In this document: one piece after another, positions 6,106 to 26,821 of the stretch
Numbering within the stretch: the stretch's first letter is position 1
Layout: the number at the start of each line of letters is the position of its first letter
NCBI GenBank assembly: GCA_028281945.1
Contig: JANQIW010000095.1
Location: forward strand, 1 to 30,371
DNA: 30,371 nucleotides
Source of the DNA: Prochloraceae cyanobacterium PL24a_bin.78
Lineage (GTDB): Bacteria; Cyanobacteriota; Cyanobacteriia; Cyanobacteriales; JANQIW01
Reading direction: 5' to 3'
Made by a program: the position numbers and the translations under genes
Notes under the pieces: generated by a model
Told to the model about the DNA's origin: nothing
What the model saw: only the letters and a program-made list of their open reading frames with translations
Databases searched by the model: none

Positions 6106-8017
6106 CAAAAGAGGAATAAGCAAAAGTTTGTTTTAACCTCTTTAATAAACTAGAAGCTGCCAATTGTTTAGCTTCTTTTTTGCTTTTACCATTACCTTTA
6201 TTGGTAAAAGTTTTATCTTCTAAAATAAGAGTTACTATACATTGAAAACCATTTGCTAATGACGAATATTTATAGTTAGGCACAGGCCAACTTAACTGTT
6301 GAGAAAGATTATTTAAAATAGCAATAGAATTGTCAGAAGATTCAAAAATTTCGTTAATATATTCTTCATTAAATTCTTCTCCCCAAAAATAATCTTCATC
6401 TTCAATCCATTCTTCTTCTTCCTCAATTTCGTCATTTTGTATTGCTAGCAAATTATTAGTATTGTCTGTATTTTTTTCTATTTTTGATGTATTTTGAAAA
6501 TTGAAATTTCTTTCTTCAATTGTTACTAATTCCTCTTCACAAAATGCCACTAACCATTGAGAAGCTGCGGATTGTTTAGCTTCTTTTTTAGAATTAGCAA
6601 TTTCAGGATTAAAAGTAGTTTCATCATCTACCACTAACCATGCAGCAAAAGGAGGTGCAGATAATTCTTCATAAATAAAATCTACTTGTTTGCCCATTTG
6701 TCTAGCAATTGAATTTAAAGCTTGGAGAAAATCTGAAGGATTTTTGTCCCCCCAATCTTTTAATTCTTCGAGTTTTAATTCATGCTTGAAAATGATTAAA
6801 GCGACATCTTTAAGAGTTAAAGTATTTTTATTAAATCTATTAATTATTTCAGGTAATAGTTTACCAATATTCTCATCATTAGCTACCTCTAAAAGTTTAG
6901 TAAATTCTTTAGCTGATAAACGAGAATAAATAGATTCATCTTGCAGATTTTGATTAATTATAGCTTGTGATTTTGCTTTCATAATCTCTTTTTTAGTTTG
7001 ACGAGTTTGTTCGCGATACTCATTAAGATGGTTGGCTATTTTTTCTAATTCTTCTTGAGTATATGGAATATTTTCTCCTTTAATTATAGACTTAATAATG
7101 CGATGATTAACTATATCTGCATATCTTCTAATAGGAGAAGTAAAGTGACAATAACTATCTAAATTTAAAGCAAAATGTCCTTCACAATTTTCTTGATAAA
7201 CCGCAGGTTTAAGATGGGATTGTAAATATTTTCTAATTAATTCGCTACTACCTAAATCTCTTAAACTTTTGATAAAAGTGTTTCTATCTTCAGGAATTTC
7301 TCCTGCTTTATGATTGCGATACATTCCTAGCTGGGTTTTTTCTAATAAAAAATTAGCAATAGCCATATTAGCTAAAATCATAAATTCAGCGATAATTTGC
7401 TGACTATTATATTGAATTTCTTTAGTAATATTTCCTTCTTCATCTAAGTTTAAATCCCCAATAGACATTGAACCAATTGCCCCTCTATCTTGACGAAGAT
7501 AATTTAATTTTTTAGCCCAAATTTCGCAATATTTTAAAAGAGGATATAATTGTTTTGATGGAGAAATTAAAGTTAAATCTGCCTCTTCATAAGCAAATCT
7601 TTTAATACTAATTAATAAGGTTTCTTGGATTTCAGTATTAACAATATTAGCACTAGAATCTAAAGTTATTTTTACAGTTAATGTAGGGCGATGTTTTCCT
7701 TCTAAAAGACTAGTTTTTTCTTCTGACAAGATTCTGGGAAACATAGGAATATTTCCTTTAGCTAAATAGACAGTTTCCACTCTTGTTAATGCTTCTTTGT
7801 CTAAGGCACTATTTTTATGAACATAAGCAGAGACATCTGTGATATGAATACTTAAAATTGCACCATTATTAATAATTTCAATCCAAATAGCATCATCTAA
7901 ATCTTTACTACTACTAGAGTCAATGGTAAAACCACATACCTGAGGGCGGCTTGAATAATCTATTGTAACTGTATTAGCTTCTGTTAGGACTTCTCTGGTA
8001 AATATTTTTTTAAACAT
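6101..8017 (-). CDS. RNB-domain 3'-5' exoribonuclease (RNase II/R family) with two C-terminal dsRNA-binding motifs and no CSD or S1 domains
   Basis: 638 aa. The RNB catalytic signature 'SSSKDLDDAIWIE...IHITDVSAYV' sits at the very N-terminus, so no cold-shock domains precede it. The C-terminus carries two DSRM units: '...PSDFLQALNSIARQMGKQVDFIYEE...SKKEAKQSAASQWLVAF' and '...NSIAILNNLSQQLSWPVPNYKY...KSKKEAKQLAASSLLKRLKQ'. An acidic linker (EEEEEWIEDEDYFWGEEF) separates them. Confidence 0.8.
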   Translation of the reverse strand: MFKKIFTREVLTEANTVTIDYSSRPQVCGFTIDSSSSKDLDDAIWIEIINNGAILSIHITDVSAYVHKNSALDKEALTRVETVYLAKGNIPMFPRILSEEKTSLLEGKHRPTLTVKITLDSSANIVNTEIQETLLISIKRFAYEEADLTLISPSKQLYPLLKYCEIWAKKLNYLRQDRGAIGSMSIGDLNLDEEGNITKEIQYNSQQIIAEFMILANMAIANFLLEKTQLGMYRNHKAGEIPEDRNTFIKSLRDLGSSELIRKYLQSHLKPAVYQENCEGHFALNLDSYCHFTSPIRRYADIVNHRIIKSIIKGENIPYTQEELEKIANHLNEYREQTRQTKKEIMKAKSQAIINQNLQDESIYSRLSAKEFTKLLEVANDENIGKLLPEIINRFNKNTLTLKDVALIIFKHELKLEELKDWGDKNPSDFLQALNSIARQMGKQVDFIYEELSAPPFAAWLVVDDETTFNPEIANSKKEAKQSAASQWLVAFCEEELVTIEERNFNFQNTSKIEKNTDNTNNLLAIQNDEIEEEEEWIEDEDYFWGEEFNEEYINEIFESSDNSIAILNNLSQQLSWPVPNYKYSSLANGFQCIVTLILEDKTFTNKGNGKSKKEAKQLAASSLLKRLKQTFAYSSFD

Positions 8018-9393: not shown

Positions 9394-10293
9394 ATTAAAA
9401 ATAATAAATTTTTATTATTAAGATAGTAACCAAGATTATTATCATTAATCCCATTTACTAGCTATATATTATATAGTTTATTATTTTAACTTAAAAACAT
9501 GAGACTACTTTAGTTTAATTTTTATCTTCAGCTAAGGAGATAATTGTATCTAAATTTATTATTGTATCTTAAATTGTCTTTTGATAAAATCTGTTAACAC
9601 TATCAATAATAACCATAAAATTATGATGTTTTATCCTCGTTTTTAAAACAAAATTTTCCTCTTTAATTTTTCTTTCAAGGCTGTTATAATCTATTCTTCA
9701 AGTTAAGAATTGTATGTATCATTATATTTCTACTGATTTTTGGAGTAATATTAATTGTTATTATCTTAATTCTTGTTACCAAAAATGTCGAGAAAATGCC
9801 TCTGTTAAATTTTTCTATAAAAGTTAAAATTAAAATTAGACGGAAATAAATCCTACGCAAGAAATAAACCAAACTTTTTTTTTGAAAATTTGTTATATCA
9901 AATGGTCTTTAACAACGATAGAGTTAAAAAATCCCAAATCCAGGATAATTAACCAAAATTTATTCTCCCCATTCTTCCCATTTTCTCCATTCTCCCCTCA
10001 ATATCTATCACTATTAAAGAGAAACGATATTAACCATGTGATGAATATGAGTTTTTGGTTGGCTTGCTTGTTTGATTTGTGATTACTAATTATGATTTTT
10101 AAATTTGATTAACCTGACTCACAAAAATTTTTACAAAAAAAAGATATAGATAAAAATACATTTATTCTTATCTTTTTATGTTTATAGATTTTAAATAACC
10201 TAAATCAATTAGAAACTTAATATTTTTCAGGTAAATTTGGGAAAAGAAAAAACTCGATTTGATCATCGACTTATGACTTAAATACAAATTAAA

Positions 10294-12144
10294 TCAAGAT
10301 TCTCCTTTAAGCAATAATTCCATTCCTTTTGCCGTTTCGGCTTGAATTTTTAATTCATTACCAATGTCATCAGTAAGTTTTTTTAACTCTTCTCCTAAAC
10401 CTTGTGGCAATAAAACTTGTGTACTTTGAGCCGTTGCCAAAATCCCTGCAACTTCCAATAAACGTTGCAATAAAAGATTACGAGCTTCTTCGCATTTTTC
10501 TAAACTTTTCAACCAACCTTGAGGTAATTGATTGTATTGTAAAGACTGAGTTTCTAAATAAGATAAAGTTCGATCTAATCCATCTAATTGAATTGCTGCA
10601 TCGGCAGATACTTTAAGCAAATTAGATACATATCCCACTATTTCTTCTCGTTGTTCGGGAGTTTTTCTGGTATCAAACCAAATTTGACTAATGCGGACAA
10701 TATCGCTAAATAAATTACGGGCTGTAGTAGAATTTAAATCTTCCATAATTTCTACCACAATTTCTTGGAGTTTGGAGGGTAATTTTGATTGACTAGGCCC
10801 CGGAGTAAGTAATGGTTTTCCTATAGATTGATGAGCCAACAATAACAATCCTATGGCAAATAGCCCACTAAAACCTCCACTGACAAAGGATCCTACTCCC
10901 AAAATCGCCCCTGTTAAACCGTAAAAATTCTGAGGAATTGCTTTCCAAAGTTGATTTTTACTTAAAGCACGTACATAAATTTGTTTTTTAGCTAATTCTT
11001 CTACTACTGAATTAACTTGAGAGTCATCGAGACACACTAATGCTTTAGTTCCTGAAATAGTTTCTTTTAAACCCTCTCGTTGTGGGGATAAATTAAACAA
11101 CGCTCTAATTTTATCTAGGTTTTTTTCTTGTTTATCTTTATCTCCGTGAAGAGATTCTAACAGCAAATAGGTGGAAGGTTTAGAGACTATTCCTTTGCAT
11201 CCAGGACATATAGAAATTCCTAAAAAGGTTTCTGTTCCACAAACTAGACATGAATGATTGGATTTCTTTAAAGATTTAGCCATTCCACTCTTATCTATCA
11301 AAGTAATTCCTTGGCTTTTATTTTCAGATAATGCTTCCTCAAATCTAGCTACACTAGAAAAGCGATCGTTAGGATTAGCACAAGTAGCTTTAGCAATTAC
11401 TTCATCCAACCAAAAAGGAACATCTAGGCAAATATCTTTGACATGACAGCCTAAAGCTGGAAACTTTCCATCTAATGGTCGGTAAATTTCACCTGTAAGG
11501 GCAAAATATAAAGTCATTCCTAATGCAAATATATCGCCTTTAGAATTAATTTCTTTGCCATCTAGTACTTCTGGTGGAGTATATAATCCATCAAACAACC
11601 GCTTTCTTTCATTTTTACTTAGTTGATGTTCTATTCTGATAGAGCCAAAGTCACTTAAACGAGAATAACCATTGGATTCTAGAAAAATATTATTAGGTTT
11701 AATATTTCCGTGAATTATACCACGTCTATGAGCGGCGGCTAAAGCAGAAGCTATTTGTATACCAATAGAAACTACTTTATCTGAGGGTAAAACTCCTTCT
11801 TGTTTGATTATGGTTTGCAGGTTAGTCCCATCAACTAACTCCATAATTATGAGACTGCGATCAACTAAATCCATAATTATGAGAGTTTGGGAGTCAAAAT
11901 CTATATAATCGTAAGTTTGGATAATGTGAGGATGATTAAGAGAACGAGCTGCTATAACCCTTTTCTTAGTTTTTTCTTTACCTATTTTTGCTAAAATAGG
12001 AGGAGGTATTAATTGTTTTACAGCCACATTTTGTTTCAATTGAATGTCTTCGGCTTTGTAAACAACAGAATACCTGCCTCGTCCAATCTCCTTGATAATG
12101 GAATAACGGTCTTGTATAACTGTTCCGGGAGCAAAATAATTCAT
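10294..12144 (-). CDS. Membrane-anchored Hanks-type Ser/Thr protein kinase homologue with HGN replacing the catalytic HRD (predicted pseudokinase), a zinc ribbon, one TM helix and a helical C-terminal domain
   Basis: 616 aa. Gly-loop 'IGRGRYSVVY', beta3 Lys 'VAVKQL', DFG 'SDFGS', 'YTPPE' and 'DIFALGMTLY' are all present. The catalytic loop reads 'IIHGNIKPNNIFL' where HRDLKPxN is expected (DNA GGAAAT where CGNGAY is expected). After the kinase come 'CLVCGTETFLGISICPGCKG' (CxxC...CxxC), a TM segment 'LTGAILGVGSFVSGGFSGLFAIGLLLLA', and about 190 aa of helical C-terminus. Confidence 0.8.
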   Translation of the reverse strand: MNYFAPGTVIQDRYSIIKEIGRGRYSVVYKAEDIQLKQNVAVKQLIPPPILAKIGKEKTKKRVIAARSLNHPHIIQTYDYIDFDSQTLIIMDLVDRSLIIMELVDGTNLQTIIKQEGVLPSDKVVSIGIQIASALAAAHRRGIIHGNIKPNNIFLESNGYSRLSDFGSIRIEHQLSKNERKRLFDGLYTPPEVLDGKEINSKGDIFALGMTLYFALTGEIYRPLDGKFPALGCHVKDICLDVPFWLDEVIAKATCANPNDRFSSVARFEEALSENKSQGITLIDKSGMAKSLKKSNHSCLVCGTETFLGISICPGCKGIVSKPSTYLLLESLHGDKDKQEKNLDKIRALFNLSPQREGLKETISGTKALVCLDDSQVNSVVEELAKKQIYVRALSKNQLWKAIPQNFYGLTGAILGVGSFVSGGFSGLFAIGLLLLAHQSIGKPLLTPGPSQSKLPSKLQEIVVEIMEDLNSTTARNLFSDIVRISQIWFDTRKTPEQREEIVGYVSNLLKVSADAAIQLDGLDRTLSYLETQSLQYNQLPQGWLKSLEKCEEARNLLLQRLLEVAGILATAQSTQVLLPQGLGEELKKLTDDIGNELKIQAETAKGMELLLKGES

Positions 12145-12156
12145 AGTCGAGTGAAT

Positions 12157-12777
12157 TTAGAACCGTTGCTGATTAAAAGCTTCAATATCTTCTAAAACTG
12201 TTAGAGCATTATTACGCCAACCATCATTATTGGAGTAAATACGAAGGAATCTTTCTAGATTTATTTCTGCTTCATAATAAGAACCTATCAGATATTCAAA
12301 CATACCAGCATGGTATAAAGCTATGTAATTGTTTGGTTGATATTCTAACACTAAATTCATAATAGGCCCTGCTGATTCTTCATCTCCAGCATCGGCGATG
12401 GGACTCGCTAGGTTAAATATTACTGAAGCTGCATATTCTTTATGTCTGTAACATGGTAATTTTTCGATTAATTCTCTAGCCTCATCAATTTTCCCTGCCA
12501 AAGCGTAGCATCCAGCGGCATATGCTCTGCCTTCAATGGTATTGGGGTGGGGGTTAGAAAGGATTGCTGTTGTTACTTCTACAGAATTGCATTGAGGTTT
12601 GATGGAATTAAACCATTTTTCCCCTCTTGAGATATTTCTGGAGTTGTCTCGATGGGATGATATTTCTTGCTTAGTATAGTTTGATCTTGTTTGTGTTTCT
12701 GGGATAAAAGGGCGAGCCGCTAATATCAATGTACAAAGTCCGAGATAGGTAAATCCTAATTTATAAAGTAAACGCAT
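12157..12777 (-). CDS. Secreted TPR-like / helical repeat protein
   Basis: 206 aa. Signal-peptide-like N-terminus 'MRLLYKLGFTYLGLCTLILAA', then Ala/Tyr-rich helical repeats ('AYAAGCYALAGKIDEARELIEKL', 'ALYHAGMFEYLIGSYYEAEINLERF'). Ends 12 bp upstream of the kinase start. Confidence 0.5.
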   Translation of the reverse strand: MRLLYKLGFTYLGLCTLILAARPFIPETQTRSNYTKQEISSHRDNSRNISRGEKWFNSIKPQCNSVEVTTAILSNPHPNTIEGRAYAAGCYALAGKIDEARELIEKLPCYRHKEYAASVIFNLASPIADAGDEESAGPIMNLVLEYQPNNYIALYHAGMFEYLIGSYYEAEINLERFLRIYSNNDGWRNNALTVLEDIEAFNQQRF

Positions 12778-12855: not shown

Positions 12856-15486
12856 TTAGTTCAAGTTCATTTTTTTTGTTATTTTGGGGACTATTTTTAA
12901 AATTGGTTTAGCATCAACTCCTAGATTTCTAGCTTCTTCAAATAATTTCTTGACAAGTTGACTGTATTCTTGGCGAGTTATTTTTTCTTTGGATGCTTCT
13001 GACATTAGTCTTGCTGTATATTCTTGCAATACTACTACTTTGTCTGAGGGTAAATCTGAGCTTATGTTTTCTACTATTTGAGCTAATCCTTCTAAGGCGG
13101 TATCTTTTTCATAGCGATTGGCTATTTCTATCATTAATTTGGCAAACCTAAAAAATAGAGGTTTAAATTTTAAACCTTCAAGCATTGTACAACTTGCTTT
13201 TGGTGGGCAAATTTCACTGAGGATATTTTGATCTACGTCTTCAACTCCTATGGCTAAAAAGTTTAGTTTCTCTTCTGCAAAAGCTTCTTGAATTTTTTCT
13301 GCTGATTGTTGCCAGTTGTCATCAAGAGTACTACCTGCAATGGTGATGATCCAAGGTTGATAGTGTTGAATATTTTGCTCTTTAAAAATCTTTTGACGAT
13401 CGTCAATTACCTTAAGTGCTAATTCTAATCCTTCTCCTATGGCTGTGGATCCTTCTAATTCGACTTCAGTGAGGTTATAGTTTGCATTATCAGTAAAAGG
13501 TTTAATGGTTTTTACTGGTGTACCAAAGGTTATAATTGCTACTTCGATACACTTATTAGTATTTGGATCATTGCTTAATTGTTCTTTAAATTTATTGATC
13601 CCTTTGATTAATTCTTCCTTATACTCTGTTGACATGGAATCAGACGTGTCTATCAGTAATACTACTAAACACTTAGGTAAAGCTTCTTTTAGTCGAGGCT
13701 GAGTATATTCTCCGTTGCTTGGTAATTGGGATTGATTTGATGAAGTATCAAGCATTGGGGTAACAAATGCTTCCAAAATTTCCGAGCGTCCACCATCAGA
13801 GTTTACTAAAACATGGGGGAGTTGAATATTTGACCAATTATTGATTTTTAGGTAATTAAAATAATTATGAACACCACCAAGAGCTTGAATTTTAGATTGA
13901 ATTGATTCTGCATCTGCTTGATCTTGATACCATTGTGCTTGTGCTTGATTTTTGGCAATTTGTATATTGTCTTGAGATTCATATAGTTTCTTTTGTCGAT
14001 CTGTTTGAAATTCAATTAATTCCTCTCTTTGTTTTGTGAAGGCTTCTTGTTCTATCAGTTTTCTACGTTTTTCTTCATTTTCGATTTTAACTTGATAGCT
14101 TTCTGTTTTTTGTCTTTCTATTTCTCGCTCAGTTAAAATCTTCTCAAGTTCCTCTGGTAAATCTATTTCATTAATTAATGTATTAACACCTATAATACCA
14201 TATGACTTTAAGCTTCTTTTTATATATCCTTTTACATTTTGTGCTATCGTATTTCTCGCAGAATGAAAGTCTATAGCTTTGAATTCTTGTGCTGCACTCC
14301 TAAAATAATAACTTATATTTGGTTCTAAAACTTTTTTAATCAAATTTCTCATGCGATCATATGGCTTGACTATATATTCTTTACTATTTTCAACTTTTTC
14401 TAAATCTAATCCTTGTGAATTAACAGAGACAATACTAGCAATCATCTTAGGAGCATTTTCTGGTAGTATTTGAATAATCTGGGTAAGTTCGATGTAAAAT
14501 TCAAATCCATCTTTGGAACGAAGGTTTAAAGGTTCGAGATTTAAATCATAGTTCATTGCAGTAGACTGAGACTCTTCTTTTTTTGACCAATCTAATGCTA
14601 TTTCGTTAGTAGGAACAAGATTTATCTTCTGTAGATAAGTATTTATAGGATATTTATTAGGTCGTAAAGGTTCTTTATGTATTCCTTTATATTCTTTATC
14701 TACTAAATACTCTTCACCATTTTTTAATTCTTTATCTTTTTTTGTCGTCTCCTTACAAGGAGGAGTTTTACCAACATAAGATATCACAACTCCTACTGTT
14801 CCAGTAGGAATTACTGTTAATGGAACTTTTTCTATTTTAACAAACCAAGGATTTAAATACCAGTTACCCACAGGAATTATTTCTTCTTGTAAACCTTTAC
14901 ACCCACCATTATCAATAAATGCTTGGGCATCTTGAAATTTGTTATGATCTTCTATACATGGACCTGCTATTTCGCCTTCTGGAATTGGTAGACCATCTTT
15001 AGTTGTAACAATGCCAATCATATCTGTTTCTATATGATAGACCTTTAAATCTTCTGGATTTACATTATGTTCTTTAGCATTGGCAGAAGTGATTACAGTA
15101 AAAAGTTTGGTATTAATTCTGTATGTTCCTGCTCTTAAGATTCCTAATTGTTCCCCTTTTTCCCCACCATTGGCTAAGAAAGCAACTCCATCTTGAAAAT
15201 CACTACAGGGAACTATTCTTCCTAAATTTTGTGTATAACTTTCTGCCTTTGTTTCTCCATCTTTAGCTACTACTAAACCAATTTCTCCTTGAGGAATTTC
15301 TATGGCAGGTACTATCTCAACTTCCATAAGCCAAGGACTATAAAAATGTGTACCAGGTGGAAGAATCTCTGCTTGATAACCAGTTTCCCCATTAGTAGCA
15401 ATTTGTTTTCCTGGTGGTAATTTAGAGCCAACTTTTTTATACTTAATTCCTACTTGGTTTGGTCCAATTTCAATGGTTTTTAACAT
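12856..15486 (-). CDS. SPFH/flotillin-like protein with triplicated N-terminal 'IPxGEIG..KDG' modules and a coiled coil, fused to a C-terminal von Willebrand factor A (vWA) domain
   Basis: 876 aa. SPFH-like 'GPNQVGIKYKK...ILPPGTHFYSPWLMEVEIV'. Three repeats: 'IPQGEIGLVVAKDG', 'IPEGEIAGPCIEDH' / 'IGIVTTKDG', 'IPTGTVGVVISYVG'. Flotillin-type EA-rich coiled coil 'ERQKTESYQVKIENEEKRRKLIEQEAFTKQREELIEFQTDRQKK'. vWA with a MIDAS 'LLIDTSDSM' (DxSxS), '...GSTAIGEGL' and 'IITIAGSTLDDN'. An extra helical tail of about 130 aa follows. Confidence 0.7.
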   Translation of the reverse strand: MLKTIEIGPNQVGIKYKKVGSKLPPGKQIATNGETGYQAEILPPGTHFYSPWLMEVEIVPAIEIPQGEIGLVVAKDGETKAESYTQNLGRIVPCSDFQDGVAFLANGGEKGEQLGILRAGTYRINTKLFTVITSANAKEHNVNPEDLKVYHIETDMIGIVTTKDGLPIPEGEIAGPCIEDHNKFQDAQAFIDNGGCKGLQEEIIPVGNWYLNPWFVKIEKVPLTVIPTGTVGVVISYVGKTPPCKETTKKDKELKNGEEYLVDKEYKGIHKEPLRPNKYPINTYLQKINLVPTNEIALDWSKKEESQSTAMNYDLNLEPLNLRSKDGFEFYIELTQIIQILPENAPKMIASIVSVNSQGLDLEKVENSKEYIVKPYDRMRNLIKKVLEPNISYYFRSAAQEFKAIDFHSARNTIAQNVKGYIKRSLKSYGIIGVNTLINEIDLPEELEKILTEREIERQKTESYQVKIENEEKRRKLIEQEAFTKQREELIEFQTDRQKKLYESQDNIQIAKNQAQAQWYQDQADAESIQSKIQALGGVHNYFNYLKINNWSNIQLPHVLVNSDGGRSEILEAFVTPMLDTSSNQSQLPSNGEYTQPRLKEALPKCLVVLLIDTSDSMSTEYKEELIKGINKFKEQLSNDPNTNKCIEVAIITFGTPVKTIKPFTDNANYNLTEVELEGSTAIGEGLELALKVIDDRQKIFKEQNIQHYQPWIITIAGSTLDDNWQQSAEKIQEAFAEEKLNFLAIGVEDVDQNILSEICPPKASCTMLEGLKFKPLFFRFAKLMIEIANRYEKDTALEGLAQIVENISSDLPSDKVVVLQEYTARLMSEASKEKITRQEYSQLVKKLFEEARNLGVDAKPILKIVPKITKKMNLN

Positions 15487-15583: not shown

Positions 15584-16579
15584 TCAATTTCCATCAATTC
15601 TGCATTTTTCACATCGAGATAAAAAGCCTTTAAAATTCTCTCTCCAAATTCCTAACTCTTCCTCTTCATCTGGATCCTTAGCTATACTGAATTGTAATGA
15701 AGGTAGATGTCCTCGTCTTGCTTGTAAATCAAAGGTGAAATCTTCATGTTTGAGCCATTCTTCATTTTGATACCAACCTACTAGTTCACCGAATTGATAG
15801 TAAAGTATGGGATTAAATTCTCCTTTTTTTCCTCCGATACTCAACCAAAGATCTCTTTGAACACTAAAACCAAAATGCCCTTTTGATTTATTTAACCAAA
15901 GATTATTGATGATTTTGAGGTCTTTACAAGGAAAATTTTCTATATCTTTAGGCTTTAACCAACCTTCTTTCTCTCTTTTGGCTACTTTTAGGATAACTTT
16001 TGCTGTTTCTATATCTGCTTCTTTCCATTGTCCTGCTTCGAGATATTCTCGTAATTGTTCATAATTGCCGATTATTTTGTCTTGATTAGGTTTCCTATAA
16101 GTATCTTGATGTGGTTGATATCCTATAGTTTCATTGGGCATCTCTAAAATTTCTGCGTCATACTGGATTCTTTGATTTCTAGTAGAATGAGAGAAGTTTT
16201 CAATTTCGTTAATAAGATGATCTACTTCAAACAATTCATCCCTCAATCTTTGAGACGAAGAAATTTGAGGATTTGTCGTTCTTGGAGGAAGATAATTCCT
16301 ATCCTGAAAATTCCCATAACTATCATATTCTGGAGGATATTGTCTGGATTTTGTGGATGAATCTTTTGTTTCTGCTTCTTCTGCCATTTCTGCTTCTAAA
16401 AGCTGGATGTCTTTTTCGCATTCTTCTATTTCTTCATCTAATTCTTCTATTTCGATTTTTAAGTCTCCAATTAATTTCAGATTAGATCTATTTTTGGCAA
16501 TATCTTGTTTATATTGAGCACGTCTTCTTTTTAAAGTATCCCTCGTTTTTTTGAGAATTTCCAAAGTTTCTTTTGACAT
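15584..16579 (-). CDS. Coiled-coil protein with a C-terminal GUN4-like (porphyrin-binding) domain
   Basis: 331 aa. The N-terminal ~70 aa is a charged coiled coil (LKIEIEELDEEIEECEKDIQLLEAEMAEEAE). C-terminal 'LREYLEAGQWKEADIETAKVIL...DLKIINNLWLNKSKGHFGFSVQRDLWLSIGG...FGELVGWY...RRGHLPS' matches the GUN4 domain signature. Confidence 0.7.
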   Translation of the reverse strand: MSKETLEILKKTRDTLKRRRAQYKQDIAKNRSNLKLIGDLKIEIEELDEEIEECEKDIQLLEAEMAEEAETKDSSTKSRQYPPEYDSYGNFQDRNYLPPRTTNPQISSSQRLRDELFEVDHLINEIENFSHSTRNQRIQYDAEILEMPNETIGYQPHQDTYRKPNQDKIIGNYEQLREYLEAGQWKEADIETAKVILKVAKREKEGWLKPKDIENFPCKDLKIINNLWLNKSKGHFGFSVQRDLWLSIGGKKGEFNPILYYQFGELVGWYQNEEWLKHEDFTFDLQARRGHLPSLQFSIAKDPDEEEELGIWRENFKGFLSRCEKCRIDGN

Positions 16580-18180: not shown

Positions 18181-18243
18181 AGTTATTGATTGATTTTTAT
18201 TATATATTTTGATGTATTTAAACAGAAGATAGAGGGGGTTGAT

Positions 18244-18444
18244 ATGAAAGAAGTGTCTTCACAAATTATTAGTTTAGTTGAAAGTCTAAGAGATAAACAA
18301 CAAGATAGATTAACTATTACAAGTCATCTGGCTGATAAAATTCATAAAGTGCAAATCTTACTTGAAGAAAATTCCATTTTAGAGGCAAAAAAAATCATTG
18401 CTGATGCCTTACAAGAGTGTGAAGAGTTAATTAGAATAGTTTAA
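18244..18444 (+). CDS. Small helical protein (~66 aa), paralog A of an uncharacterised family
   Basis: Start taken at 'MKEVSS' preceded by the strong SD 'agagggggttgatATG'. Paralogous to the 18784 ORF. Confidence 0.45.
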   Translation: MKEVSSQIISLVESLRDKQQDRLTITSHLADKIHKVQILLEENSILEAKKIIADALQECEELIRIV

Positions 18445-25690: not shown

Positions 25691-26821
25691 TTAATTAGCT
25701 TGATAAATTTTTAATCTTTCTTGATATTTAGCGACTAAAGACTTCATTGATTTGACATTTTGGTTATAATACCCCTTAGATAGATGAGAGTAACAAGTAA
25801 GGGAAGCCCAAACACGACAAGATTTAATAATAGCTTCTTTCAAATTACCTTGTTTTAATTTTCGCAGAGCACCTATCTCTTCTAATTTAGAAATAGCCCA
25901 TTTATCTTGTTCTTGAGGTGCAAAAGAAGTCATATTTTTGGCATTAAAATCCAAAATTTGATAGCGACCAAAAGCAGTAGAACAAGTTTTTTTCCCACTT
26001 TCGGTGATATAGGTAATACATTTTTCGGGATGAGTGGTTAAATCATCAACTATTTCCCCACCAAATAAAGTTTTATAACCTAAAGGATGGAGGGTTCCTT
26101 CTGCCCATGCAATGGTATCTAAAAATGCTTTTTCTTGGGGAGACAAAGAAGATAAAGCAGTAGTAGCTTTAGCAGGATTATATTTAATACTTATTTTCTC
26201 TTGATAAACTGGTTCTACCTGTTGAGTTTTTTGTTCTAATTTAGGATGAGGATTACGCTCGGATGATAGTGAGTTTAAACCAAAAGCAATACTAAATACA
26301 GAAGCCACCGCCATTGACATCATGCCAAGAGAAATTACCTTTTTTTTCTTTTTAAGATTTCTTTTATTGACTTTTGCTAAATCCTCTGGAATAGTAATAA
26401 CTATAAATTTGCCAGAATTTAAATTTTTCATAAAGAAACGTTTAGATCCTTGTAAATCTCGAGTATCCTTTAAGAGGAAATCTAGAATATTACCTTGAGA
26501 ATCTATTGCTTTATAAATATAGATATCTTGACCTTGAATAACTATTTTTCTTTCAACAACTTGCCAATCGGAAATTTTCTTGGCTTCATACTTCATTTTC
26601 TTAACTTGGGAAGAATAACGTCTAACTAAGGAAAAGAATGTGACACGATCGAGATCAAATCCCCTTTGAGACATGATCTTCTCAATTTTACGGTAGTTTT
26701 TATCGTAGTAAACATACCAGGCAACGCAAAGTAAGAGCATCTCTTCTTTTGTTTCTTTCCAAGAGCTTTTCAACTGAGCTTGGAGTTTATGATTATATTT
26801 ATTATTTAAAGTTGAACTCAT
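25691..26821 (-). CDS. Chimeric ORF: degenerate IS6-family transposase N-terminal fragment fused in frame to a SAR-type (signal-anchor) lambda-R-like lysozyme / lytic transglycosylase
   Basis: Residues ~28-140 'LLLCVAWYVYYDKNYRKIEKIMSQRGFDLDRV...WQVVERKIVIQGQDIYIYKAIDSQGNILDFLLKDTRDLQGSKRFFMKNL' align with the IS26 transposase block 'ILWAVRWYCKYGISYRELQEMLAERGVNVDHST...WHMDETYVKVNGRWAYLYRAVDSRGRTVDFYLSSRRNSKAAYRFLGKIL', but DETY reads VERK. A weakly hydrophobic A/G/S-rich TM 'MMSMAVASVFSIAFGL' follows. The C-terminus 'KAFLDTIAWAEGT...GYKTLFGGE...HP...CSTAFGRYQIL...AIIKSCRVWASL' matches lambda R endolysin 'KAFLDMLAWSEGT...GYDVIVGGE...HP...STGAGRYQLL...AIDRCSNIWASL'. Confidence 0.65.
   Translation of the reverse strand: MSSTLNNKYNHKLQAQLKSSWKETKEEMLLLCVAWYVYYDKNYRKIEKIMSQRGFDLDRVTFFSLVRRYSSQVKKMKYEAKKISDWQVVERKIVIQGQDIYIYKAIDSQGNILDFLLKDTRDLQGSKRFFMKNLNSGKFIVITIPEDLAKVNKRNLKKKKKVISLGMMSMAVASVFSIAFGLNSLSSERNPHPKLEQKTQQVEPVYQEKISIKYNPAKATTALSSLSPQEKAFLDTIAWAEGTLHPLGYKTLFGGEIVDDLTTHPEKCITYITESGKKTCSTAFGRYQILDFNAKNMTSFAPQEQDKWAISKLEEIGALRKLKQGNLKEAIIKSCRVWASLTCYSHLSKGYYNQNVKSMKSLVAKYQERLKIYQAN

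Follow-up and report, generated by a model that had tools for sequence, protein, structure and literature searches.

The vault is assembled from 39-mer half-vaults joined base to base and, to our knowledge, is the only SPFH assembly described as both soluble and many-repeat; its function is still unknown. The SPFH proteins solved so far all form rings or domes, and the vault is the only soluble one, without membrane association (PMC12624060). In many archaeal SPFH proteins, the domain preceding the SPFH core is a single 'MVP repeat'; the succession of MVP repeat and SPFH is a recognised architecture, of which the major vault protein (MVP) is the multi-repeat elaboration (PMC13607799). Among signalling and conflict systems containing vWA (von Willebrand factor A) domains, the TerY-P triad groups a TerY-like vWA and a PP2C phosphatase with a Ser/Thr kinase to which a zinc ribbon is fused (PMC11090510). 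In the vWA-MoxR/effector-associated domain (EAD) systems, Band7-like domains are classed among the modules that form superstructures, and GUN4 is listed as a domain confined to cyanobacteria (Kaur, Burroughs, Iyer, Aravind 2020, PMC7159879). Here, we analyse an SPFH–vWA fusion protein encoded on contig JANQIW010000095.1 of Prochloraceae cyanobacterium PL24a_bin.78 (assembly GCA_028281945.1), the whole 30,371-nucleotide stretch of which is referred to as the window. The gene occupies positions 12856–15486 on the minus strand and consists of a single open reading frame (ORF) of 876 residues. We lean towards the explanation that its product is a cytoplasmic, ring-forming SPFH scaffold devoid of a transmembrane (TM) helix, which combines MVP-like repeats with a YegL/TerY-type vWA head and serves as a stress- or conflict-signalling platform. 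The statements on architecture are made with high confidence, while those on function are tentative.

A preliminary description of this DNA had proposed an SPFH scaffold joined to a vWA domain, and both domain searches and structure prediction bear this out. In Pfam, Band_7 (PF01145) matches residues 257–473 (E 1.2e-20; 74.7 bits against a cutoff of 23.6), VWA (PF00092) matches residues 608–767 (E 9.5e-10; 39.4 bits against 23.8), and VWA_2 (PF13519) also exceeds its cutoff (E 3.2e-10; 41 bits against 27). An AlphaFold2 monomer prediction from 83 homologs, with a mean pLDDT (predicted local distance difference test) score of 84.8, agrees with this layout. Residues 1–300 form beta-rich modules, followed by an alpha/beta SPFH core to about residue 444, one unbroken 90-residue helix (residues 445–535), a short helix (539–549), a disordered tether (549–600; pLDDT <50), and a Rossmann-like vWA (605–770). 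The core (residues 301–444; 14155–14586, on the minus strand, as are all features of this gene) contains part of the Band_7 match and is related by Foldseek to prohibitin, erlin, HflK/C, stomatin, and QmcA; it corresponds to the MVP 'shoulder' and to SPFH2 of HflK/C and prohibitin. The subsequent helices (13840–14154), matched to MVP by Foldseek, correspond to CC1/CC2 or the cap helix and are separated by a conserved 'LGG' break, in which G538 is invariant in the homolog alignment. They lead into a conserved 'IQLPHVLV' motif (residues 554–561), where L556 is kept in at least 90% of the aligned sequences and P557 is invariant, and then into a Ser/Thr/Gln/Pro-rich tether of low pLDDT that reaches residue 603 (13678–13839 together with the motif). 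Beyond the vWA, a C-terminal tail (residues 774–876; 12856–13167) folds into four predicted helices (774–809, 814–831, 838–854, and 856–872; pLDDT ~90), the first of which begins immediately after the last vWA strand. Such a tail had been anticipated, albeit with a length of 130 residues rather than the approximately 100 (774–872) found here. It has no credible Pfam or PDB sequence match and is confined to the subtype of 850–876 residues and to a 481-residue paralog in a related locus (L005).

The same description had called the protein a flotillin and a membrane scaffold, and neither term could be retained. The flotillin label is not established, because the Pfam Flot domain is unmatched at E up to 0.1, and the hydrophobic segment is absent. 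A hydropathy scan detected no hydrophobic or TM segment in the SPFH–vWA protein or in its closest relatives of 850–876 residues, leaving the window protein without a predicted membrane anchor; about half of the wider family possesses one or two N-terminal hydrophobic helices. HflK/C, prohibitin, erlin, stomatin, and flotillin/YqiK share the Band_7 domain and the SPFH1-SPFH2-CC1-CC2-CT order with the window protein, and some relatives are named 'YqiK' at JGI. In contrast to HflK/C-type SPFH proteins, however, the window protein contains four SPFH1-like modules instead of one, lacks a TM helix or membrane hairpin, and bears a 270-residue vWA plus helical module as its C-terminal part.

The most distinctive feature of the N-terminal region is its repetition. 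Profile–profile comparison between sub-alignments with hhalign revealed four mutually homologous modules (residues 1–58, ~59–135, ~148–220, and ~221–300), with probabilities of 92–99.8% and E values of 6e-7 to 3e-28 for all pairs. The internal repeat reported previously is thus real, although three copies had been counted where four are found. Module 0 (residues 1–58; 15313–15486) is a short N-terminal beta module, 'IGPNQVGIKYKKVG...PPGTHF', that is not preceded by a TM helix and lacks the 'C..FQD..AF' insert; its strands are predicted with pLDDT >90, and it matches modules 1–3 with probabilities of 96.8–99.8%. Module 1 (residues 59–135; 15082–15312) reads 'IPQGEIGLVVAKDG...C..FQD..AF..GGEKG.Q..IL..G.Y.INT.LF.V'. 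Module 2 (residues 148–220; 14827–15045), 'IETDMIGIVTTKDG...H..FQD..AF..GGCKGLQEE', is matched by the module hidden Markov model (HMM) and pairs with modules 0 and 1 at a probability of 98.7%. Module 3 (residues 221–300; 14587–14826), 'IPTGTVGVVISYVGK...', pairs with modules 0–2 at 92–97% and leads into the Band_7 match beginning at residue 257. This last module is the native membrane-proximal (SPFH1-like) domain, and the other three are extra copies. A single-module HMM found 2–3 further copies in relatives of 850–876 residues and up to 8–9 head-to-tail copies of ~73 residues in relatives of 1200–1400 residues. Copy numbers ranged from 2 to 9 among the first 83 relatives, and 1–13 copies were detected among the 150 best family representatives. 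Judged from these sequences, the family is built on genuine tandem repeats whose copy number varies.

The inserted modules contain an invariant Cys or His just ahead of the conserved 'FQD..AF' helix: C94 (15205–15207) in module 1 and H181 (14944–14946) in module 2 are both invariant in a 16-sequence alignment. In view of the tetrapyrrole-binding type of the GUN4 partner described below, these residues could constitute a candidate ligand or metal site. Two relatives also show module-only ORFs directly upstream of the full SPFH gene, one of 507 residues in L009 (4417–5940) and one of 115 residues in L012 (5603–5950), which might result from gene splitting or a frameshift or might encode module proteins that stand alone.

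Amplification of the beta-domain before the SPFH core gives the monomer a layout like that of MVP, with stacked repeats, an SPFH shoulder, and a long cap helix, an architectural likeness that the earlier description had overlooked. In Foldseek, the PDB entry that best matches the full model is MVP (9r86; E 1.5e-9; alignment of 684 columns), with prohibitin, erlin, HflK/C, stomatin, and QmcA next, and vWF A3 matches the C-terminal part; the ring-forming SPFH proteins (HflK/C, prohibitin, erlin, and stomatin) gave E values of 1e-9 to 1e-7. In structural comparison of the repeats, MVP repeats R1–R7 (3gf5) scored 11.0 (206, at 3.9 Å) and rat MVP (6bp7) 8.7 (201), followed by prohibitin at 7.1 (109), erlin at 5.5 (103), and HflC at 5.1 (103); unrelated folds remained below 4. 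An MVP-type structural array of tandem repeat domains, SPFH shoulder, and cap helix is present. The likeness is structural and architectural, not one of family membership, because the Pfam Vault model remained unmatched when E values as high as 10 were allowed, both for residues 1–243 and for a multi-repeat stretch of the relative P0002. The two proteins also differ in detail: eight tandem repeats have been counted in rat MVP (PMC13607799) and four here, the window modules are ~73 residues long with a 'C..FQD..AF' helix insert, and the C-terminus bears a vWA. True bacterial MVP homologs that are >50% identical to the MVP of eukaryotes have been reported, for example from Moorea (bioRxiv 10.1101/872010). 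Since these constitute a separate group, the module amplification appears independent of MVP, and the present family appears to represent a second, independent amplification of the MVP-repeat module.

This resemblance raises the question of whether the protein builds a closed and soluble nanocompartment of vault type around a cargo, for which the vWA and tail would serve as a loading or cap domain. The repeat–shoulder–cap-helix layout, the subtype without a TM segment, and repeat numbers of up to 13, which would be expected if wall length were tunable, are consistent with such a compartment. However, the roughly half of the family with N-terminal TM helices would form membrane-attached domes, and the Vault model is unmatched, making the closed compartment distinctly unlikely. 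A broader conjecture, itself unlikely, is that these proteins might be bacterial vault-like particles, either soluble or membrane-capping large cages, with independently amplified modules (13 or more) and a tethered crown of YegL-type vWA domains; cyanobacteria would use them, gated by tetrapyrrole (GUN4), as an assembly platform or an effector when signalling stress or countering phages. With its tunable number of MVP-like modules, the lack of a membrane anchor in this subtype, a GUN4 operon partner, and a signalling-type vWA head, the family would offer a genetically tractable model for how cage geometry depends on repeat number and for what vault-like assemblies do.

The vWA head (residues 604–773; 13168–13677) is of the YegL/TerY type, as judged by sequence comparison, an affiliation that had previously gone unrecognised. 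Residues 604–778 align with nearly the whole of E. coli YegL (33% identity over 175 residues; E 2e-31), the YegL motifs 'PW..LI' and 'PTDxW' are kept, and the relative P0025 is named 'YegL/YqiK' at JGI. In the structural search, vWF A3 aligned with the domain at a TM-score (by target length) of ~0.7. The domain is also 35% identical to stand-alone vWA proteins of ~221 residues encoded near SPFH relatives, one of which shares 49% identity with YegL and adjoins PP2C and kinase genes. The domain had been described as complete, with a metal-ion-dependent adhesion site (MIDAS) DTSDS, a conserved Thr, and a 'TLDD' motif. Of the MIDAS elements, DTSDS (residues 613–617) and a Ser/Thr in the next loop (residues 680–681) are present, but the beta4 Asp is lost: it lies in 'LITDG' in YegL and the stand-alone copies, is replaced in the window protein ('IAGS'), and gives way to Gly, Ala, or Cys in each of the aligned SPFH-fused copies, leaving the MIDAS incomplete. 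The 'TLDD' that had been assigned to the site overlaps the conserved 'PTDxW' motif of the YegL family and is not the MIDAS Asp. DxSxS and 'PTDxW' are common to all fused and stand-alone copies. Since the loss of the Asp extends to every SPFH-fused copy, metal-dependent ligand capture is uncertain, and the 'metal-dependent adhesion' previously attributed to the domain is doubtful. Against NCBIfam, only sub-threshold vWA matches were obtained, including one to a cobaltochelatase subunit model (E 0.0015, far below the cutoff).

A paralog in L005 (5602–7047) relates directly to this head. It is a separate 481-residue protein made up solely of an adaptor helix at the N-terminus, a coiled coil, a vWA, and a helical tail, with 30% identity to residues 457–876 of the window protein. 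The gene for it is located just upstream of that for GUN4 and adjoins the gene of a 1103-residue NACHT protein.

GUN4 is a tetrapyrrole-binding activator of Mg-chelatase. In the window, a GUN4 protein of 331 residues is encoded directly upstream of the SPFH–vWA gene (15584–16579, minus strand) and consists of an acidic coiled coil (residues 1–75), a low-complexity linker, and a GUN4 domain (residues 166–326; Pfam E 1.3e-38). It shares the full domain with GUN4 but differs in its additional 165-residue coiled-coil/low-complexity N-terminus, and its gene is operonic with the SPFH scaffold, not with chlorophyll-synthesis genes. The neighbourhoods of relatives were surveyed by look-ups of eleven homologs and an HMM census of 95 related loci. 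A GUN4 gene was found upstream in 12 of the 13 SPFH–vWA loci having at least 1 kb of upstream sequence and was directly adjacent in 11; in L012, a 115-residue SPFH-module fragment ORF lies between the two genes. GUN4, either alone or as a kinase–GUN4 fusion, also precedes the SPFH gene in 13 vWA-less cyanobacterial loci from GTDB and in Microcystis L008/L009, and it stands directly upstream of the vWA-less relatives in L008/9, L022–25, L030–37, L053, L058, and L083. The non-cyanobacterial loci of the census yielded no GUN4. Because GUN4 also precedes many vWA-less relatives, its occurrence follows that of the SPFH body rather than that of the vWA.

These observations bear on the mechanism put forward in the preliminary description, in which an oligomeric membrane scaffold uses the MIDAS of its vWA for metal-dependent recruitment of the GUN4 protein or the adjacent pseudokinase. 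The suggested partners themselves stand: GUN4 and kinase genes recur beside relatives. DxSxS is retained, and the acidic coiled coil of the GUN4 protein could provide a carboxylate ligand. Nevertheless, recruitment of GUN4 by the vWA is unlikely, because GUN4 directly precedes many relatives without any vWA; moreover, the beta4 MIDAS Asp is missing from the fused domains while persisting in the stand-alone YegL-like ones, and there is no membrane anchor. Overall, metal-dependent recruitment is clearly improbable.

A housekeeping, flotillin-like microdomain scaffold for tetrapyrrole or chlorophyll synthesis, in which GUN4 activates Mg-chelatase and the vWA is analogous to that of ChlD, would fit GUN4 as the only invariant partner, the weak cobaltochelatase-subunit match, and the chromosomal, housekeeping context of the window, but it is very improbable given that the vWA is clearly YegL/TerY-type rather than ChlD-type, that GUN4 partners of relatives bear EAD1, EAD8, CHAT, or kinase fusions, that the family is rare and patchy and occurs without GUN4 in Myxococcota, Acidobacteriota, and Chloroflexota, and that one locus resides on a Tn7-like element.

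The neighbourhoods instead point to signalling. Fusions to EAD1, EAD8, CHAT, or kinase domains, as carried by these GUN4 proteins, are typical of conflict or signalling proteins. Triads of vWA, PP2C, and kinase genes occur at L010/L017, L016, and L021, a stand-alone vWA gene with a kinase gene in L012, and kinase genes directly downstream in L038 and L044. EAD1- or EAD8-tagged GUN4, caspase, trypsin, WD40, NACHT, or STAND proteins are encoded nearby in L005, L010, and L016. Since relatives neighbour TerY-P triads, EAD adaptors, STAND NTPases, caspases, and mobile elements, stress or conflict signalling is favoured over housekeeping. The SPFH–vWA protein would thereby connect TerY-P (YegL) modules with the GUN4/EAD conflict networks of multicellular cyanobacteria.

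The gene itself belongs to a set of four co-directional genes encoding the GUN4 protein, the SPFH–vWA protein, a TPR-like protein, and a kinase-like protein, separated by gaps of 97, 78, and 12 nt. Scans of this operon for promoters, terminators, and tandem repeats yielded nothing above background. The TPR-like protein (206 residues; 12157–12777, minus strand) has a hydrophobic N-terminus and weak TPR matches, all below the Pfam cutoffs. The kinase-like protein (616 residues; 10294–12144, minus strand) has a Ser/Thr kinase fold at residues 1–280 (Pfam Pkinase E 2.4e-36), a CxxC...CxxC zinc ribbon at residues 299–316, a 31-residue hydrophobic segment at residues 407–437, and a helical C-terminal domain without a family match. 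Its catalytic loop reads IHGNIKPNN (11689–11712), whereas the kinases beside related SPFH genes have IHGDIKPEN or VVGDLKPEN. An in-frame 30-nt tandem duplication in the gene (11824–11883, minus strand; 26 of 30 nt identical) doubles the hinge strand by 10 residues (LIIMDLVDRS/LIIMELVDGT). The HGN motif together with the hinge duplication suggests a decaying or repurposed kinase, and the protein is most likely catalytically dead, in keeping with the pseudokinase originally noted next to the SPFH–vWA gene.

This operon resembles the TerY-P triad in its YegL-type vWA and in the kinase fold followed by a CxxC...CxxC ribbon, and full triads flank relatives. It differs in that the vWA is fused to a 600-residue SPFH scaffold and has lost the beta4 MIDAS Asp, that the window has no PP2C gene, and that the kinase has HGN for HGD, the 10-residue duplication, and a TM segment. 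The PP2C HMM matched no ORF in the window, whereas the same HMM found PP2C in L010, L016, L017, and L021. With the vWA-MoxR (VMAP)/EAD systems, the family shares a setting, as relatives lie among EAD1- or EAD8-tagged GUN4, caspase, trypsin, WD40, STAND, or iSTAND proteins. In the window protein, however, SPFH precedes the vWA, as opposed to a vWA preceding an effector, and the vWA is YegL-type, not CoxE/MoxR-associated. No MoxR AAA+ ATPase, VMAP, or iSTAND third component was found in the operon or the window. EACC1 and MoxR-type systems were accordingly rejected, their defining genes being absent.

In the ring-forming scaffold that we favour, the SPFH core and the long helix would oligomerise into a large ring or dome, as in solved SPFH proteins, and the stacked extra modules would lengthen the ring wall, as in MVP. 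The conserved 'LGG...LPxVLV' region would close the apex, from which tethers of ~50 residues rich in Ser, Thr, Pro, and Gln could display an apical crown of vWA and helical-bundle heads. The co-transcribed GUN4 protein, a tetrapyrrole binder, may associate with the SPFH body, and proteins of the Ser/Thr-kinase type may couple the platform to a signal in TerY-P fashion. In the window, this role would fall to the membrane-anchored zinc-ribbon pseudokinase, perhaps with the TPR-like protein.

Several points weigh against this model. The ring or cage is argued by analogy, and we infer the association between GUN4 and SPFH. A TerY-P-style phosphorylation switch cannot operate in the window, because the kinase is probably inactive. 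The window context is that of housekeeping genes (glycosyltransferases, RNase II, DnaB, and PPK2), and no PP2C, STAND NTPase, or EAD genes are present within it. PADLOC gave no match for the SPFH–vWA protein or the isolated vWA, and its TerY model does not match the fused domain; the protein is therefore not a recognised defence component. Furthermore, neither the TPR-like protein nor the C-terminal domain of the kinase has a homolog in the 95 related loci. Neither was therefore retained as a conserved component of the system, and a role for either is suggested by operon position only.

The family is rare and patchy. Among 1.84 billion representatives, HMMER with modules 1–2 as the query detected 777 proteins when E values up to 1e-3 were accepted and 127 at the stricter limit of 1e-30. 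A single-protein scan of GTDB genomes found no close relatives, and an alignment-based scan recovered 80 loci from GTDB species genomes. The SPFH body (residues 1–535) occurs in Cyanobacteria, Myxococcota, Acidobacteriota, Chloroflexota, and Bacteroidota. The vWA fusion was found in 20 of the 150 best representatives, and every source organism given for it is a cyanobacterium; those named are Microcystis, Moorena, Crocosphaera, Nostoc, Iningainema, Okeania, Stigonema, Calothrix, and Caldora/Symploca. In databases, SPFH–vWA proteins are called only 'SPFH domain-containing' or 'VWA domain-containing' protein, and full-text literature searches returned no paper on an SPFH–vWA fusion or a GUN4–SPFH link. 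The passing mention of Band7-like and GUN4 domains for vWA-MoxR systems (PMC7159879) is a partial exception. The expectation that the fusion is not a common annotated family with a known role thus holds, as it is rare, generically named, and without a description in the literature searched. What is new is that an MVP-like array of repeats and a vWA head of the YegL type occur together on an SPFH scaffold with a conserved GUN4 operon, a combination that is unreported.

The neighbourhoods of relatives contain further recurring elements. DUF4407 membrane proteins were noted with vWA-less members at L008/L009 (8621–9829), L026, L034, L045, L047, L049, and L084: their gene directly follows that of the family member, and in Moorena DUF4407 is fused to the C-terminus of vWA-less family members. 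Because DUF4407 adjoins or is fused to such members, the scaffold appears to take alternative C-terminal 'heads'. Paralogous DO-GTPase-like genes follow the SPFH–vWA gene in L001 (10720–16607), L003 (10041–15039), L007 (4376–9122), L014 (5674–7278), and L015 (10810–12612). The conserved set to which they belong encodes, in order, a GTPase-like protein of ~253 residues, two paralogs of ~275–305 residues with weak Pfam DO-GTPase1/2 matches, and a protein of 670–830 residues; L014 and L015 reach the contig edge, where only the first two genes of the set are visible. The window does not contain these genes. DO-GTPase systems have been reported as nearly absent from cyanobacteria (Kaur et al. 2020, PMC7159879), and given this near-absence, the set may be a divergent cyanobacterial branch.

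In L002 (1–6038 and 11269–12861), and also in L003 and L004, the GUN4 and SPFH–vWA genes lie between genes for TnsA, TnsB, TniB, ParA/ParB, and a TraG-type coupling protein. Flanked by these Tn7-like, ParA/ParB, and TraG-type genes, the L002 locus is interpreted as cargo on a Tn7-like mobile element. A first segment of ~60 residues with a 'KDLALIKKIEDRLR.EDDPR' motif is common to the GUN4 protein, to a protein of 227–231 residues encoded upstream of it, and to the 481-residue vWA paralog; the genes concerned include those at 6465–7148 and 7152–7982 in L001, 3540–4235 and 4239–5057 in L003, and 7087–7986 in L005. This shared N-terminus behaves like an effector-associated adaptor domain. The GUN4 protein of the window differs in having its long acidic coiled coil in place of this adaptor region or an EAD.

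The remaining genes of the window include a RelE/HTH pair, a pentapeptide protein, an epimerase, CobQ, and one DDE transposase. The RelE-family toxin gene (1477–1821) overlaps that of an HTH/MqsA-like antitoxin (1157–1480), both on the minus strand, and a tRNA-Val gene lies at 2020–2093. The transposase, a 376-residue ORF on the minus strand (25691–26821) with an IS240-type DDE domain (E 3.5e-12), is the sole mobile-element gene seen in the window. For an 84-residue ORF on the plus strand (18190–18444), the Pfam match to CTD11, which belongs to conflict systems of the ABC-three-component type, stays below threshold (E 9e-4; 20.2 bits, with the cutoff at 27.7). A 900-bp AT-rich gap (9394–10293) separates the kinase-like gene from dnaB; it holds no ORF longer than 66 residues and has no Rfam match, and within it a 9-nt tandem repeat, ATTCTCCCC, is present in four copies at 9962–9997.

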